64,000 bases of DNA from the IMG/VR virus record IMGVR_UViG_3300042945_002173; one strand, 5' to 3'. This DNA comes from a virus. The position numbers and the translations under genes were made by a program. The notes beneath the pieces are model-generated. The model saw only the letters and a list, made by a program, of their open reading frames with translations. It had not been told where the DNA came from and searched no databases. Below, one piece after another: positions 1,083 through 62,266 of this stretch (position 1 is the first letter of the stretch; every line of letters begins with the position of its first letter).

Positions 1083-1736
1083 ATGGCATTTATATACAAA
1101 ATAACTAATAATATAAATCAAAAATTTTACATAGGGTTTACAGGTCAAAAAATCCCTATGCGTAGATTTAATCAACACCTATCATCTGCTCGTTCTGAAA
1201 GAAAAAATAATCAACCTATTATCAGAGCAATAAGAAAATATGGGGAAGAAAATTTTTCTTTTGAAATCCTTTTGGAAGGAGAAGAAAAATTTTTACTCAA
1301 TGTAGAAGAACCTAGATTGATAAAAGAACTAAAACCAGAATATAATTCTACATTAGGTGGTGAGGGAATACTTGGATATAAGCATACAGAAGAGACGAAA
1401 ATAAAATGTGGACTATCAACACTAGGTAGAAAAGAAAGTGAAGAGCATAAAAGATGGAGAAGTCAAAAAATTAAAGAAGGTTGGAAAAATCAGAATGTAA
1501 ATAAAAAAATAGAAGTATCTAATAGCAAATTAAATTCCAATAGTCAAAGAATTGAAATTGAAATTGAAGGAATAAAATTTAAAAGTATTAATGATGCTGC
1601 TCGTTGGGCGATGGATAAATATGGTATAGGAAGGAACACCGCAATAAGATATATTAAAGAAGGTCGTTCATTTTCCAACAAAAAACAAATGAATAGAATT
1701 TATGATGGAAAATACAGGTCAACGAAGCACCTCTAA
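1083..1736 (+). mobile_element. Free-standing GIY-YIG homing endonuclease (Seg-like, NUMOD3-type repeats)
   Basis: IYKITN...FYIG, AIRKYG.ENF, YN.TLGGEG, HTEETK; sits directly in front of uvsW. Confidence 0.85.
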
Positions 1737-3198
1737 TGGGCACATTATTATTTCAAAAAAGAATGAAGTTTTTTTACAAGTAAAAGCAGAACCTCATATC
1801 TATTATGAACTAAGAGACGCATTCCAATTTGAAGTTCCTAACGCAAAATTTTCACCAGCATATAAAAATAAATGGTGGGATGGGCGAATTTATTTGTTTA
1901 ATGTTAATACTGGAGAAATATACTGTGGTTTGTTAGACAGATTAACTAAATTTTGTAACGACTACAATTATACTTATGAGTTTGTAAACAATAAGTTTTA
2001 TGGTCTTCCTTTTGAAGTCAATGAAATGATTTCAAAGGAAGGTGTAAAAGATTATATGACTTCTATTTGCAAGTATGCTCCCCGTGAGTACCAAGTTGAG
2101 GGAGTATACGACGCTTTAAAACATAATCGAAAGTTGTTGATATCTCCAACTGCCTCTGGAAAGTCGTTGATGATATATTCGATTGTCCGATATTACGTTG
2201 AGAAAGGACAAAATACTCTGATAGTCGTTCCGACGACATCCCTTGTAGAACAGATGTATAAAGACTTTGCAGATTATGGGTGGGATGTGGGTTCATTTTG
2301 CCACAAGATATATGCGGGTAAAGAAAGAGAAACGGACTCTCAGGTGATCATTACGACCTGGCAGTCCATCTACAAACTTCCCCGACAATATTTTTCAAGA
2401 TTTAATGTGGTCGTTGGAGATGAAGCACACCAGTTTAAATCAAAGTCATTAGTATCTATAATGACAAAACTTTCTGATGCAAAATATCGTTTTGGATTTA
2501 CAGGAACCCTTGATGGCACTCAGACACACAAATGGGTTTTAGAAGGTTTATTTGGTCCTTCATACAAAATCATCAGAACAGAAGAACTGATGCAGAAGGG
2601 TCACGTTGCCAAACTGGACATTAATATTCTTCTATTGAAACACCCACCAAATAAGTTTGAGACCTTTGAGGATGAGGTTCAGTATATTATCAATCACGAG
2701 AAACGCAATAAGTTTATCAAGAATCTTGCCCTAGATCTTAAAGGCAATACTCTGATTCTCTTTTCAAGAGTAGAGGGACACGGTCAACCTTTATACGATC
2801 TCATAAATAAGAGTATCGCAGAAGATCGCCACGTGTTCTTTGTTCACGGTGGTGTAGATACTGAGGACCGAGAAAAAGTCAGAGAAATTACTGAAAAAGA
2901 AAATAATGCAATCATCGTTGCTTCTTATGGCACTTTTTCTACTGGTATTAACATTAGAAATCTACATAATGTCATCTTTGCTTCCCCTAGTAAATCAAGA
3001 ATCAGAAATCTCCAATCAATCGGAAGGGTCCTAAGAAAAAGTGAAAATAAATCAAAAGCAACTCTATATGACATTGCCGATGATATCAGTTATAAATCAA
3101 GAAAAAATTATACTCTTAATCATCTAATAGAAAGAATAAAAGTTTATAACGAAGAAAACTTTAATTATGATATTGTAAACATACCGCTTAAAAACTAA
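1702..3198 (+). CDS. uvsW: UvsW SF2 DNA/RNA helicase
   Basis: SPTASGKS Walker A, DEAH, QSIGRVLR motif VI; start codon uncertain. Confidence 0.95.
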   Translation: MMENTGQRSTSNGHIIISKKNEVFLQVKAEPHIYYELRDAFQFEVPNAKFSPAYKNKWWDGRIYLFNVNTGEIYCGLLDRLTKFCNDYNYTYEFVNNKFYGLPFEVNEMISKEGVKDYMTSICKYAPREYQVEGVYDALKHNRKLLISPTASGKSLMIYSIVRYYVEKGQNTLIVVPTTSLVEQMYKDFADYGWDVGSFCHKIYAGKERETDSQVIITTWQSIYKLPRQYFSRFNVVVGDEAHQFKSKSLVSIMTKLSDAKYRFGFTGTLDGTQTHKWVLEGLFGPSYKIIRTEELMQKGHVAKLDINILLLKHPPNKFETFEDEVQYIINHEKRNKFIKNLALDLKGNTLILFSRVEGHGQPLYDLINKSIAEDRHVFFVHGGVDTEDREKVREITEKENNAIIVASYGTFSTGINIRNLHNVIFASPSKSRIRNLQSIGRVLRKSENKSKATLYDIADDISYKSRKNYTLNHLIERIKVYNEENFNYDIVNIPLKN

Positions 3199-3611
3199 TG
3201 GGAGAAGAGTTTTACGCAGCAATCAAATTAGTAACAGGTGAAGAAATATTTTCTCTAATATGTGTTGATGAGAATGATGGGGATCCTATCATAATTCTTC
3301 AAAATCCTGTCATAATGAAAGTTATTAATAATCATATAGGTCAATACGTAAAAGTAAAACCATGGATGGAAATACCATCTGATGATTTCTTTATTATAAA
3401 ATACGATAAGATCGTTACTATGACTGAAGTTAAAGAAAGTCAAATGATAACCTTCTATGAGAGATATCTTAATGAAGAAGATGTTGATATAGAACTGGAT
3501 GGTAAGGTAAAGATATCAAATAAGATGGGATATATCTCTTCTGTTGAAGATGCTAGAAAGAACTTAGAGAATATTTTTCGTAAAGATCTTAAAGATAATA
3601 AAGAAAGCTAG
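3198..3611 (+). CDS. Conserved cyanophage hypothetical protein (Sm-like, KLVTGEEI motif)
   Basis: Coupled to uvsW by TAATG overlap; usual position between uvsW and g55. Confidence 0.6.
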   Translation: MGEEFYAAIKLVTGEEIFSLICVDENDGDPIIILQNPVIMKVINNHIGQYVKVKPWMEIPSDDFFIIKYDKIVTMTEVKESQMITFYERYLNEEDVDIELDGKVKISNKMGYISSVEDARKNLENIFRKDLKDNKES

Positions 3612-3617
3612 AGTCTC

Positions 3618-3667
3618 ATCTTCAACGGGAACAAAGGGATTCTACTCATAATTTCGTATGTTGTCAA
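3618..3667 (-). promoter_or_regulatory. Antisense sigma70-type promoter with conserved leader (copy 1)
   Basis: Minus strand TTGACA-17nt-TAGAAT-CC-CTTTGTTCCCGTTGAAGAT; same element at 49184-49233. Confidence 0.65.
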
Positions 3668-3724
3668 GTCCTGAAAGTATGGTATAATATACATAACGAA
3701 AATTTATCTACAAAGACCGATGTT

Positions 3725-4252
3725 ATGTCCAAGAAGAAATCAGAACATTATGTAAACAACAAAGAGTTACTTGAAGCATTAATTGTTTATAGAACTAAAG
3801 TTGAAAAATCATACTTGAAGAAGTACGATAAAGATCTCACAAAGCAACCCAAAGAGGAAAGAGCAAAGCACTGGGAAGGTAAACCACCAATCTCTAATTA
3901 TCTGGGTGAGTGTTTCTTGAAAATCGCTACACATCTTTCATACAAACCAAACTTTGTGAATTATATGTTTAGAGATGATATGATCTCTGATGGTATTGAA
4001 AATTGTGTTCAATATATTCACAACTTTGATCCTGAGAAGTCTAAAAACCCCTTTGCTTACTTTACTCAAATTATTCACTATGCTTTTCTCCGTCGTATTC
4101 AAAAGGAGAAGAAGCAACTGGAAATCAAGACCAAGATCATTGAACGAACTGGTTTTGATGAGGTTATGATGGTTGACGATAGCTTGCTTTCTGGAAGCAG
4201 TTCGGACTATAATACAATCAAAGATAACGTTGCCTACAAAACTAACCGATGA
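3725..4252 (+). CDS. g55: Late sigma factor gp55
   Basis: HYVNNKE, KPNFVNY, DMISDGIENC, NPFAYFTQI motifs. Confidence 0.95.
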   Translation: MSKKKSEHYVNNKELLEALIVYRTKVEKSYLKKYDKDLTKQPKEERAKHWEGKPPISNYLGECFLKIATHLSYKPNFVNYMFRDDMISDGIENCVQYIHNFDPEKSKNPFAYFTQIIHYAFLRRIQKEKKQLEIKTKIIERTGFDEVMMVDDSLLSGSSSDYNTIKDNVAYKTNR

Positions 4253-5289
4253 AGGTTGCCATTATAACAGATCAGCATTTCGGGGCCCGTAAATCCTCTA
4301 AGTTTCTTCACGATTATTTCAAAAAATTCTATGATGAAATTTTCTTTCCTTACTTAGAGGAAAATAATATCAAGACAGTTATTGATATGGGCGATACTTT
4401 TGATAATCGCAGATCAATTGACTTATGGGCACTTGAATGGGCAAAAGAAAATTATTATGATCGTCTCCAACAAATGGGCGTTACTGTTCATACCATTGTT
4501 GGAAATCATACTGCTTACTATAAAAATACTAACTCGGTCAATACTGTAGATTTATTGTTAAAGCAATATGAAAACGTAAAAGTCTATTCAGAAGCAACCG
4601 AAGTTAAACTGGATAAACTTAAAGTTCTGTTTATACCCTGGATTAATCAAGAAAATGAGGAAACTACTTTCAAACTTATTCAAAGTGTATCTTGCAAGTG
4701 TGCGATGGGGCACCTTGAACTCAATGGATTTAGAGCGCATCGTGGACACGTCATGGAAGACGGTATGGAAAGCGAACTATTTGACAAGTTCGAACTTGTC
4801 TTCTCGGGACACTATCACACTCGATCGAATAACGGAAAAATCTTCTACCTAGGAAATCCTTATGAGATGTTCTGGAATGATGTGAATGATACCAGAGGAT
4901 TTCATATTTTTGATACTGATACCTTAGAGTTTGAACCAGTTAATAATCCATTCAAACTCTTCTACAACGTTTATTATGAAGATACAAACTATAAACTATT
5001 CGATGCTCGTGAATATCAGAGTAAAATTGTAAAGGTAATTGTTAAAAAGAAGAGCGATCAAAAGAATTTTGAGAAGTTCATTGATAAACTTTATTCTTCT
5101 GGAATTCAAGAACTCAAAATTGTAGAGAACTTTGAAATTCACATAGATGAAGATTTCGAAGTTGAGGAAACTGAAAACACAATTTCTATTTTGAATAGAT
5201 ATATTGACGAATCTGAAATTGATTGTGATAAATCAATTATCAAAGGAATTCTACAAAAAATATACTCACAGGCTTGCGAGGTTGAGTAA
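4249..5289 (+). CDS. g47: Recombination endonuclease subunit gp47 (Mre11/SbcD-like)
   Basis: TDQHFG, GDTFD, GNH, SGHYH metallophosphoesterase motifs. Confidence 0.95.
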   Translation: MKVAIITDQHFGARKSSKFLHDYFKKFYDEIFFPYLEENNIKTVIDMGDTFDNRRSIDLWALEWAKENYYDRLQQMGVTVHTIVGNHTAYYKNTNSVNTVDLLLKQYENVKVYSEATEVKLDKLKVLFIPWINQENEETTFKLIQSVSCKCAMGHLELNGFRAHRGHVMEDGMESELFDKFELVFSGHYHTRSNNGKIFYLGNPYEMFWNDVNDTRGFHIFDTDTLEFEPVNNPFKLFYNVYYEDTNYKLFDAREYQSKIVKVIVKKKSDQKNFEKFIDKLYSSGIQELKIVENFEIHIDEDFEVEETENTISILNRYIDESEIDCDKSIIKGILQKIYSQACEVE

Positions 5290-13188: not shown

Positions 13189-13245
13189 TCCACTTTAAAA
13201 ACTGTCACAGGGGGCACTTGGTTGCCCCCTTTTTGCTTGTATAAT
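13189..13245 (+). promoter_or_regulatory. Conserved upstream box + terminator hairpin + -10 element (copy 2)
   Basis: TCCACTTTAAAAACTGTCACA, 30 nt, TATAAT. Confidence 0.55.
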
Positions 13246-13277
13246 TACTTTGTTGAAACAAACCACCTAACTACATT

Positions 13278-20065: not shown

Positions 20066-20163
20066 ATAGAATTGAATATCGTCGGCGCGGGGAGCACCTG
20101 GCAAAATCCAGGTTGACTCCCCCTTTTTTTCTTGCTATAATAGTAAAAGGATAGTGAAACCAA

Positions 20164-48205: not shown

Positions 48206-49150
48206 TTATGTATATGAATAATATCCAGATACAACTAAATCTCTAAGTCCTATATACAAATCATCTGACGGAGATTCCCAACTTCCATCAACATCCGATT
48301 GAACAAATATTACACCATTTCCTATTTTCTCATAAGCAGCAGTATATCCACTACCAAATTTATAAAGACCATAAGCACCATTTAATTCAACATAGTTTGA
48401 AGCACCACTGGTCATTTCCGGCATTAATGTACTTGAAGTTGCTTTTATGAGAGTTGTGGCACTATAAGCTTCATTTGAACCAGGATTTGTTAATCTCATA
48501 ACAGTTCCTAATAGTTCAAGAACTTGATTTGACTGGGTTTGATTTCCGCAGGATGTATGTTCTCCCCTAAACCAAACAACACCCCCATTTATAAGGTATT
48601 GATGAATAGCATCAATATTTTGCTGAACAGTTGCTACAGTATTTGGTATACTTCCACAAGCGGAATGATATCCAAAGATAACAACTCCATAATTTCCTAT
48701 TGTATTAATTGTAGCATCTTCAAGTACATTATTTCTTCTTCCCTGATCTCCACCACTGCCAGGTGCATTAGTTATTGCCCCCCATTTTTTATCATAAACA
48801 GTTTTTATGCAACCAGTAGAAATATCCTCCGTTGCTAATACATTACCCTCTATAACTATATTCTTCTTATTTTCAGTATCTGTGAATAAAACATCATAAA
48901 CATATCTTCCTGGTTTAATCTCTGCCGTTACCGTTGACGCTAACGATACTCTTATTCTTCCGTTTGCTCTATCAATGAATCCAACATTAAACTTTGCGGT
49001 TGGAGTCAAACTTTCTGGGTGCTTGCGGATATAAGAAGACGCTGCATATCCAACAAGATTCAAAGGAGTTCCATCAACATTATCCAAATAGAAGTCCCTT
49101 GAAAAATACTCCCCCGTATTGATAGTAATATTATTGACGTATACCGCCAT
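48206..49150 (-). CDS. BppU-like domain protein (paralog 3) with variable C-terminal domain
   Basis: MAVYVNNITIN...NLVGYAASSYIRKH...IKPGRYVYD; late promoter at about 49170. Confidence 0.6.
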   Translation of the reverse strand: MAVYVNNITINTGEYFSRDFYLDNVDGTPLNLVGYAASSYIRKHPESLTPTAKFNVGFIDRANGRIRVSLASTVTAEIKPGRYVYDVLFTDTENKKNIVIEGNVLATEDISTGCIKTVYDKKWGAITNAPGSGGDQGRRNNVLEDATINTIGNYGVVIFGYHSACGSIPNTVATVQQNIDAIHQYLINGGVVWFRGEHTSCGNQTQSNQVLELLGTVMRLTNPGSNEAYSATTLIKATSSTLMPEMTSGASNYVELNGAYGLYKFGSGYTAAYEKIGNGVIFVQSDVDGSWESPSDDLYIGLRDLVVSGYYSYT

Positions 49151-49183
49151 ATTATAACTCTTTATTGAATATTTATCAACCCC

Positions 49184-49233
49184 TTGACAAACACTCAAAA
49201 CATAAGTAGAATCGCTTTGTTCCCGTTGAAGAT
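49184..49233 (+). promoter_or_regulatory. Sigma70-type promoter with conserved leader (copy 2)
   Basis: TTGACA-17nt-TAGAAT-CG-CTTTGTTCCCGTTGAAGAT. Confidence 0.65.
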
Positions 49234-49261
49234 AAATAATAGCTCATAAAGATCTTATAGT

Positions 49262-49711
49262 ATGAGTTATGAAAACCCTTGGAGATTCAATGGGGAAATT
49301 TTTGAGTCTTCTGATATTCAAGATAATTTTGGTTTTGTATATCTTATATCTTGTAATAAGAATAATCGTAAATATTGGGGTAGGAAGTATTTTTGGTCTT
49401 ACCGCACACCAAAAGGTAAATCTAGAAGAGTTAAACAAGAATCTGATTGGAAGAAGTACTACGGATCTTGTCCAGAACTCAAAGAAGATATAAAAAAGTA
49501 TGGTAAAGAGTTTTTCAATAGAGAAATTATAAGTCTTCATAAGACAAAGGGTGATTGTAATTATGAAGAAACAAAACAACTTTTTCTAAATAATGTGTTG
49601 AAAGAATCTCTTGACGACGGATCGCCTGCGTACTACAATAGCAATATTCTAGGCCGCTATATGCGAAAAGATTATGGTAACTTTGGAACAGACTCTTCGA
49701 GAGACGCATGA
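49262..49711 (+). CDS. Short GIY-YIG-family nuclease conserved in T4-like phages
   Basis: GFVYLI...KYWGRK, ESDWKKYYGS, F.REI, YNSNI. Confidence 0.7.
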   Translation: MSYENPWRFNGEIFESSDIQDNFGFVYLISCNKNNRKYWGRKYFWSYRTPKGKSRRVKQESDWKKYYGSCPELKEDIKKYGKEFFNREIISLHKTKGDCNYEETKQLFLNNVLKESLDDGSPAYYNSNILGRYMRKDYGNFGTDSSRDA

Positions 49712-58564: not shown

Positions 58565-58633
58565 CAAACTGAATAGGTGAGGGGGGCTTGACAGATGCCC
58601 TCCTCCCATCTATAATAAACAAGTGATTCAATT

Positions 58634-61881: not shown

Positions 61882-62266
61882 CATACATAGGGGGGTTGAC
61901 AAAACCCCCTTTTTAATGTATTATAGATAACGAGTTAGGAGGTTTATGTCTCTTATTTCCCAAACAGACCGTCAAATGGTCATTGAGGCGCTTGAATACT
62001 ATATTCATAAACTAAAAGAAGATAATTGTACAGAAGCATCAATTTATGCATATAATACACTTCTTCGTTGGATAGAACTGGAGTACTTTAAGAATGAAAA
62101 TTAATCTCTGGTTCTGCATTGAAATGAATCAATGGCGTTGGACTCTGACAGATGACCATCGTCCAATTATCAAACAAGAATCTGGGCAAAGGGAAAATCT
62201 CCGTGACGCTATGAATGATGTAGCAAATACAGTTGAATATCTTATGAGTCAATCTTGACTTTTTAT

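Follow-up and report, generated by a model that had tools for sequence, protein, structure and literature searches.

A probable host-type promoter class marked by a two-block box in T4-like cyanophages, with one member antisense at the junction with the late sigma factor gene g55

Replication origins of phage T4 are few per genome, and one of them, oriF, is located at uvsY. T4 origins use MotA-dependent middle promoters, combine a promoter of this MotA type with an AT-rich unwinding element and, to our knowledge, have no conserved transcribed box. MotA, AsiA, Alt and Mod time early and middle transcription in T4; they are absent from T4-like cyanophages, the cyanomyoviruses being without alt, mod, motA and asiA, and the early genes of these phages are thought to use unmodified host polymerase (PMC2984593). 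The late motif of cyanophages is NATAAATA (PMC2984593).

Two further kinds of phage promoter are relevant here. The PeSLs of the T4-type phages RB49 and phi1 are defined by a stem-loop and occur many times per genome, in hyperplastic regions beside ORFans (Arbiol et al. 2010, PMC2839356). According to the account of Kammerer et al. (1986) given in PMC12464699, strong phage promoters can differ 10- to 25-fold in output depending on their initial transcribed sequences. Here we describe a promoter module that occurs at two loci of a T4-like cyanophage, and compare it with these systems.

Two copies of one module in the window

The window, by which we mean the whole 64-kb stretch of DNA analysed, has a T4-like cyanophage as its source, and positions 3000-4400 show ~75% DNA identity to Prochlorococcus phage P-SSM2 over uvsW, a 'methylamine utilization' gene, gp55 and gp47. 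The first-pass annotation had described a promoter-plus-leader element in two copies, and the sequence features on which that description was built were recovered (Table 1). A 29-mer occurs twice, at 3618-3646 on the minus strand (copy 1) and at 49205-49233 on the plus strand (copy 2), with one C/G position as the sole difference; none of 100 shuffled controls had any 29-mer match. TTGACA-17-TAGAAT precedes both copies, matches 11 of the 12 hexamer bases and is the top or joint-top promoter-like site of each region, and the distance between the -35 and -10 hexamers falls within the 16-18 nt of sigma-70-type promoters. While the promoter spacers of the two copies agree at only 8 of 17 positions, the 19-mer described as transcribed, which we call the start-site box, is identical. 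No further box-promoter copies were found in the 64-kb window besides copies 1 and 2. A box-like site lies at 13236-13262 on the plus strand, where TATAAT-TA-CTTTGTTGAAAC, without the central bases and without a -35, follows a terminator hairpin and precedes cobalt-chelatase-like genes.

Table 1. Features of the two loci, in window coordinates
Feature	Coordinates	Strand	Remarks
Copy 1 antisense -35, TTGACA	3662-3667	minus	invariant in 45/46 sampled loci; ~2 bits per base
Copy 1 antisense -10, TAGAAT	3639-3644	minus	17 nt past -35; TA[G/A/T]A[A/C]T in 45/46 relatives
Copy 1 start-site box, CTTTG-TTCCCG-TTGAAGAT	3618-3636	minus	two conserved blocks, four variable central bases
g55 promoter, TTGTCA-16-TATAAT, TG extension	-35 3661-3666, -10 3683-3688	plus	
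Sm-like gene, 137 aa	3198-3611	plus	PF16243 E 6e-11; phrog_471 E 2e-38
g55, late sigma factor gene	3725-4252	plus	75% DNA identity to P-SSM2 gp55 region
Copy 2 promoter, TTGACA-17-TAGAAT	-35 49184-49189, -10 49207-49212	plus	11/12 matches
Copy 2 start-site box, identical 19-mer	49215-49233	plus	follows -10 after CG; predicted start G 49219
Late-promoter-like GATAAATA	49231-49238	plus	overlaps box 3' end; kept in copies at copy 2 locus
Leader hairpin, ATAGCTCATA...TATGAGTTAT	49239-49270	plus	10-bp stem enclosing ATG 49262-49264
149-aa GIY-YIG protein	49262-49711	plus	PF19835 E 1.4e-51; phrog_447 E 7e-64

On the minus strand of copy 1, the -10 is followed by CC and then by the 19-mer CTTTGTTCCCGTTGAAGAT (3636-3618). 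As originally reported, no ORF lies downstream on this strand and the promoter aims at the 3' end of the uvsW operon. The final gene of that operon is the Sm-like gene, annotated as 'methylamine utilization'; its stop codon lies 6 nt from the box, and an antisense transcript would target its 3' end. Copy 1 has the arrangement of a cis-antisense RNA gene, namely a promoter opposite an annotated gene and without an ORF of its own. Beyond copy 1 the minus strand holds only weak terminator-like sites, the nearest ~240 nt off at 3379-3365. Toward g55, the sharing of sequence between the two opposed promoters was also borne out, as the g55 promoter -35 (TTGTCAA) and the antisense -35 have 5 of 6 bases in common. 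The g55 product gives a Sigma70_r2 match slightly under the Pfam cut-off.

A 10-bp inverted repeat joins the Sm-like coding sequence (GTTGAAGATG, 3546-3555, encoding Val-Glu-Asp-Ala) to the box (CATCTTCAAC, 3617-3626), and would let RNA of either strand fold back over the Sm-like stop codon. Fold-back of the antisense RNA through the 10 bp between the box and GTTGAAGATG was rejected as a feature of the wider family; it is confined to close relatives.

Copy 2 stands ahead of an ORF, 49262-49711, that starts 29 nt downstream. The encoded 149-aa protein consists of a SegE-type GIY-YIG domain and little else, with no DNA-binding domain. Its gene is single-copy and has counterparts with 49-82% identity in P-SSM2, S-SRM01 and three IMG/VR viral-contig genomes, which marks it as conserved and sets it apart from sporadic homing genes. 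The box module precedes the orthologous GIY-YIG gene in 21 distinct relatives, across which the stem of the leader hairpin is retained and its loop is variable; the whole leader of copy 2 folds with -10.8 kcal/mol (z -1.38). Copy 2 is, as predicted from this arrangement, a host-type promoter of the conserved GIY-YIG gene, the start codon of which would be buried in the hairpin. The TAGCT noted 6-7 nt past the box is present at both copies, and arises from different local causes: at copy 1 the pentamer is read off the Ser-stop codons of the Sm-like gene on the opposite strand, and at copy 2 it belongs to the start-codon hairpin, as its 5' arm.

Two neighbouring features are recorded here. Back to back with copy 2, at 49151-49179 on the minus strand, is a promoter-like TTGATA-17-TATAAT with a late-type GATAAATA; its TTGATA hexamer is 4 bp from the copy 2 -35, and the site faces a tail-fibre-assembly-like late gene (48206-49150, phrog_3304). 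A GIY-YIG homing-endonuclease-like gene of 217 aa (1083-1736, plus strand; PF01541, phrog_314 E 2e-31) is found immediately ahead of uvsW, 1.9 kb from copy 1. This gene looks like an insertion because P-SSM2 and S-SRM01 have no counterpart there, and its protein is distant from the 149-aa protein encoded at 49262 (27% identity over 110 aa).

A promoter family in cyanophage genomes

The two copies had been described as a duplicated pair, and this claim did not survive comparison with other genomes: they are two members of a family that recurs across hundreds of cyanophage contigs, with ~3 copies per genome and at least six different downstream contexts. The family module can be written as TTGACA-17-TAnAnT-NN-[C/G]TTTG-N6-TT[G/A]AAGA. 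The exact 19-mer was found in 30 IMG/VR viral contigs, in every one of them behind TTGACA-17-TAGAAT-C[C/G/T]. When the six central bases were freed, the degenerate box was found at more than 117 viral loci, with 145 instances among the matches listed; in 123 of those 145, TTGACA and the -10 are separated by exactly 17 nt, and the others are mostly one base off. The promoter is present in fixed register in 148 of 169 distinct box contexts, and the remaining 21 are coding coincidences, 16 of which are one homologous site in uvsW. Exactly three copies were counted in each of two complete genomes, of 213 and 236 kb, where a reversed control pattern gave none. Fifteen of the 19 bases that are identical in the window are near-universal in the family; the other four are shared in the window's lineage. 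Variants of the central hexamer are TTCCCG, TTGGGT, CTAGGG, TTAGGT and others, and a close relative of copy 2 (locus L142) has the same flanks around a CTAGGG centre. Downstream of the module are the Sm-like 3' end in antisense, the GIY-YIG gene, a DNA methylase gene or other ORFs, the 3' end of a second gene in antisense, and short units with a strong terminator ~50 nt on.

A search for promoter plus box in one genome per species, covering 185,579 species, returned four matches, none of them cyanobacterial; one is a misbinned cyanophage contig and three are apparently due to chance. The contig in question (L248, PCAW01000007.1) is filed in a 'Methanobacteriota archaeon' MAG and carries uvsW, the Sm-like protein, g55 and g47 together with the box, its proteins being 70-86% identical to those of the window. 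It is a misbinned cyanophage fragment.

We sampled the g55 locus through the neighbouring Sm-like protein alone, at 71-96% identity, which yielded 46 distinct intergenic sequences. Conservation in relatives, proposed earlier as a check on the element, was found: the antisense TTGACA-17-TA[G/A/T]A[A/C]T-NN-[C/G]TTTG-N6-TT[G/A]AAGA is present at the copy 1 locus in 45 of the 46. It always points antisense into the Sm-like 3' end, and nearly every copy has its box 5-6 nt from the Sm-like stop codon. The hexamers are kept at 45/46 loci while the spacer drifts, as in sigma-70-type promoters under conservation. The sense promoter of g55, TTGTCA-16/18-TATAAT, with its -35 one base off the antisense -35, was seen in 41 of 43 distinct relatives. 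In cultured phages, the strict box occurs at the g55 locus of S-SM2, S-SKS1 and S-SRM01, and in Syn9, S-PM2, P-HM2, P-SSM4 and P-SSM2 the antisense TTGACA-17-TAnAnT is retained and the box is degenerate (CACTG-TCAGGG-TTGAAGGG in Syn9), so that the antisense promoter is present in all 8 cultured phages examined. Phages known to have transcript-start data are Syn9, for which Doron et al. in 2016 reportedly gave the starts, and S-PM2, and both are without the strict box. In the literature searched, neither the box nor an antisense promoter at g55 is described.

The family data make it probable that T4-like cyanophages have a conserved class of host-type (sigma-70-like) promoters, recognisable by a two-block box across the predicted start, and that both copies are members of it. 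The same data bear on whether the pair is instead a by-product of DNA mobility, either a cassette copied by recombination in the manner of a PeSL or the relic or target of a GIY-YIG enzyme, without function at copy 1. A GIY-YIG gene follows copy 2 and the second one (1083-1736) lies 1.9 kb from copy 1; however, the copy 2 gene is single-copy, conserved and without a DNA-binding domain, and copy 1 is found in 8/8 cultured phages examined, the majority with no endonuclease gene at that site. The idea of a homing site was rejected in view of the conserved, GIY-YIG-only protein at copy 2 and of the occurrence of copy 1 in phages without nearby endonuclease genes. The module has a strong sigma-70-like promoter, as PeSLs do, and in some relatives a GGGGG...CCCCC-TTTTTT hairpin spans the module -35 in a PeSL-like way (PMC2839356). 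This polyG/polyC stem-loop is present in some relatives of copy 2 (e.g. L003, L020 and G002) and absent from both window copies. The copy-2-like flanks of L142 around four changed central bases suggest an exchange of patches between copies, and variable bases before the box match between both loci in two lineages. Against a mobile cassette, copy 1 keeps the same place, orientation and register to the Sm-like stop in 45/46 relatives, and there are only ~3 copies per genome, at core loci; the three copies in each of the two complete genomes lie at conserved loci and not in hyperplastic regions. We regard an origin of the pair in DNA mobility as most unlikely.

The window has host-type promoters with a PeSL-like arrangement elsewhere, at 20080-20145, 58588-58616 and 61896-61930, in which a hairpin of a G-run and a C-run with a T tract lies over the -35 (e.g. 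GGGGGGTTGACAAAACCCCCTTTTT). None of the three has the start-site box.

The start-site box and its possible action

Within the family, the -35, the -10 and the two blocks [C/G]TTTGTY and TT[G/A]AAGA have near-maximal information content, the promoter spacer and the four central bases have little, and the register of the box to the -10 is fixed. Under normal spacing, transcription is predicted to start at the G of [C/G]TTTG, which at copy 1 is the G at 3632, 7 nt past the -10, and at copy 2 is 49219; the box would then extend from about -4 to +15. A pyrimidine run followed by G should fix transcription start at that G. From its position at about -4 to +15, the box would therefore be expected to act in cis on initiation.

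A hairpin in the box, through CUUUG/UUGAAG pairing, was considered and discarded as unstable (-0.5 kcal/mol, z +0.96). Rfam searches, run at the gathering threshold on the window plus six related loci and relaxed to E ≤ 1 for positions 3300-3800, returned only tRNAs and one chance match. The central bases usually differ between copies of one genome, and therefore look like a spacer between two blocks that are about one helical turn apart. Because there is no hairpin and no Rfam family, the module is absent from hosts and the centre is spacer-like, we place the action of the box on DNA, at initiation. It may be a determinant in the initial transcribed region that affects escape or pausing, as in T5 N25. 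Alternatively, the two blocks, about one helical turn apart, may form an operator for a further factor.

Polymerase-DNA contacts from +3 to +15 are usually not sequence-specific. The conservation of the box would be unusual for a purely intrinsic effect, since polymerase contacts in this interval rarely read sequence, and this counts against the simplest form of our explanation. A weak similarity, nAnAnTnTA[A/G]G, also runs ~10 nt beyond the box across unrelated contexts, which would fit an RNA-level element or shared ancestry. As for known operators, the NtcA consensus is GTA-N8-TAC; compared by eye, the box does not appear to fit the consensus of the cyanobacterial NtcA, Pho box, HLR1/RpaB or LexA operators. 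The rRNA antiterminator boxA is GAACCTTGAAAA (bioRxiv 10.1101/2021.01.08.426015). It shares TTGAA-A with the box, a post hoc match in which the preceding bases are not conserved, and which may serve as a weak lead.

Weak covariation was seen between box positions -6 to -3 (the dinucleotide ahead of the box plus its first two bases) and +4 to +7 (the last four central bases), with ACCT/AGGT, CGCT/AGCG and AGGT/GCTT as examples. In a shuffle test over 46 combinations, which ignores relatedness, p was ~0.004, and the covariation is absent from the window's own variant.

This covariation tolerates G/T pairs and favours the transcribed strand, as would be expected if the box were an RNA-level 5' tag or seed, read by a protein or by complementary RNA, on a small regulon of phage RNAs. 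The regulon would consist of the antisense RNA at g55, the leader of the GIY-YIG mRNA and short terminated RNAs, with the Sm-like protein as a possible reader, and some family members would be trans-acting small RNAs; a conserved regulatory sRNA pair had been the second suggestion of the first-pass annotation, and a regulatory RNA may yet apply. We consider this reading, the main alternative to ours, doubtful, though not implausible. A strong intrinsic terminator ~50 nt past the module in several relatives (L244, which is the third copy of genome G001, and L052, L066, L072 and L082) predicts RNAs of ~70 nt; these loci have the promoter and the intrinsic terminator that mark a trans-acting small RNA, and neither window copy has both. 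Copy 1 always adjoins the Sm-like-domain gene, and the similarity that extends ~10 nt beyond the box in unrelated contexts fits a tag as well. However, the first block ([C/G]TTT) would be upstream of the start under normal spacing, yet is as conserved as the second, and the box has no stable fold and no matching Rfam family. Since copies in the same genome have different central bases, a continuous seed is also unlikely.

In the relatives with the third box promoter (L244, G001:146781-149806; L052, L066, L072, L082), ~50 nt separate the module from the terminator AACCGTCC...GGGCGGTTTT, beyond which are a TATAAT and then a helicase-like gene; the helicase gene is absent from the window. The predicted ~70-nt RNA is not in Rfam.

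A broader proposal, which we advance tentatively, is that the box defines a dedicated regulon of ~3 transcripts per genome (the g55 antisense RNA, the GIY-YIG mRNA and a short terminated RNA), in which an operator or 5' tag would be read by a phage or host factor and would time gp55 together with the shared -35. The Sm-like protein is one candidate reader of such a shared operator or tag. If this proposal is true, the regulon and the shared -35 together would work as a molecular timer for production of the late sigma factor gp55. The box also offers a handle for finding co-regulated transcripts, including probable small RNAs, in cyanophage genomes or metagenomes. If it were a mere determinant of promoter strength, the module would still be a portable strong promoter for marine cyanobacteria.

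The g55 junction and its relation to known systems

In RNA-seq of P-HM2, g3, uvsY, uvsW and PHM2_128 (the gene before g55) are late genes, and g55, the next gene and g47 are middle genes (PMC5082946, S2 Table). The back-to-back promoter pair therefore marks the boundary between a late g3-uvsY-uvsW-Sm operon and a middle g55 operon. Promoters with such near-consensus -35 and -10 hexamers should be read by host RNA polymerase until the late sigma factor of the phage takes control, and the antisense arm of copy 1 would be expected to fire early, alongside g55. Since the -35 is common to the antisense and g55 promoters, two polymerases should be unable to occupy both at once, and we infer mutual exclusion at the shared -35 from this geometry. 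The RNA made from copy 1 would be non-coding and would run into the late operon from its 3' end; the likely roles of copy 1 would be to set the level or timing of g55 transcription and to insulate the operons by convergent transcription. At copy 2, the same module would act as an early promoter of the GIY-YIG gene, with the translation start masked by the leader hairpin. Of the mechanisms considered, the evidence favours a cis-acting promoter or antisense switch at g55, which we regard as the probable one. In a metagenome scan with the transcribed part, 50 contigs were found and none ended at the predicted start, a count that has no bearing on transcripts.

The first-pass annotation had instead suggested that the two copies are transcription-primed origins of the T4 oriF/oriG type, at which an R-loop primes the leading strand and is later removed by UvsW. 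Copy 1 has no ORF to express and adjoins uvsW-uvsY, the copies per genome are few, comparable to the number of T4 origins, and the DNA downstream of both window copies is AT-rich. However, that downstream DNA is not shared among family members: it can be the 3' end of a coding sequence, the hairpin-bearing leader of an ORF or, within 50 nt, a GC-rich terminator. There is no shared AT-rich unwinding element downstream of the module, nor a common unwinding region of any kind, copy 2 plainly serves a protein gene, and other members meet a GC-rich terminator within ~50 nt, so the suggestion could not be upheld. The promoter is of the sigma-70 type and not of the MotA-dependent middle mode, and cyanophages are without motA and asiA (PMC2984593). 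The GC-skew inflection expected of an origin was not seen at 3.6 kb either; skew follows gene orientation, and its turn near 49 kb coincides with a strand switch. An origin at either copy is very unlikely.

In almost every cyanomyovirus examined, a near-consensus host-type promoter stands head to head with the promoter of the late sigma gene, over the same -35. This shared -35 arrangement is a testable candidate for part of the cyanophage timing mechanism.

Among the systems introduced above, T4 oriF/oriG resemble the present locus in having a promoter whose purpose is non-coding, in the neighbourhood of uvsW/uvsY, in a T4-type phage. The cyanophage module differs in that it is of the sigma-70 type, its box is conserved and its downstream DNA is not shared. 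With PeSLs it has in common a repeated sigma-70-like promoter module at unrelated loci of a T4-type genome, with hints of exchange between copies; it differs in having ~3 copies, at core loci, and in being defined by the start-site box. The start region of T5 N25 has TTGA near +7, and TTGAAGA at about +8 in the cyanophage box is similar in sequence and place. The cyanophage box is a discrete, family-wide element at ~3 promoters per genome and would be read by cyanobacterial polymerase, whereas the T5 effect is a property of single promoters. In the description available from PMC12464699, N25 is likewise a phage promoter of the sigma-70 type and close to consensus, with its first 15-20 transcribed positions functionally part of it. 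Finally, CfrI of S-PM2, as Millard et al. (2010) are represented in PMC2984593 and PMC12197685, is also a non-coding antisense RNA; it covers the 3' portion of a gene and has a link to an endonuclease gene. According to the same two sources, CfrI is located at psbA/F-CphI and the RNA was detected experimentally, whereas the antisense RNA of copy 1 is predicted, and its element lies at the Sm-like/g55 junction and is far more widely conserved.
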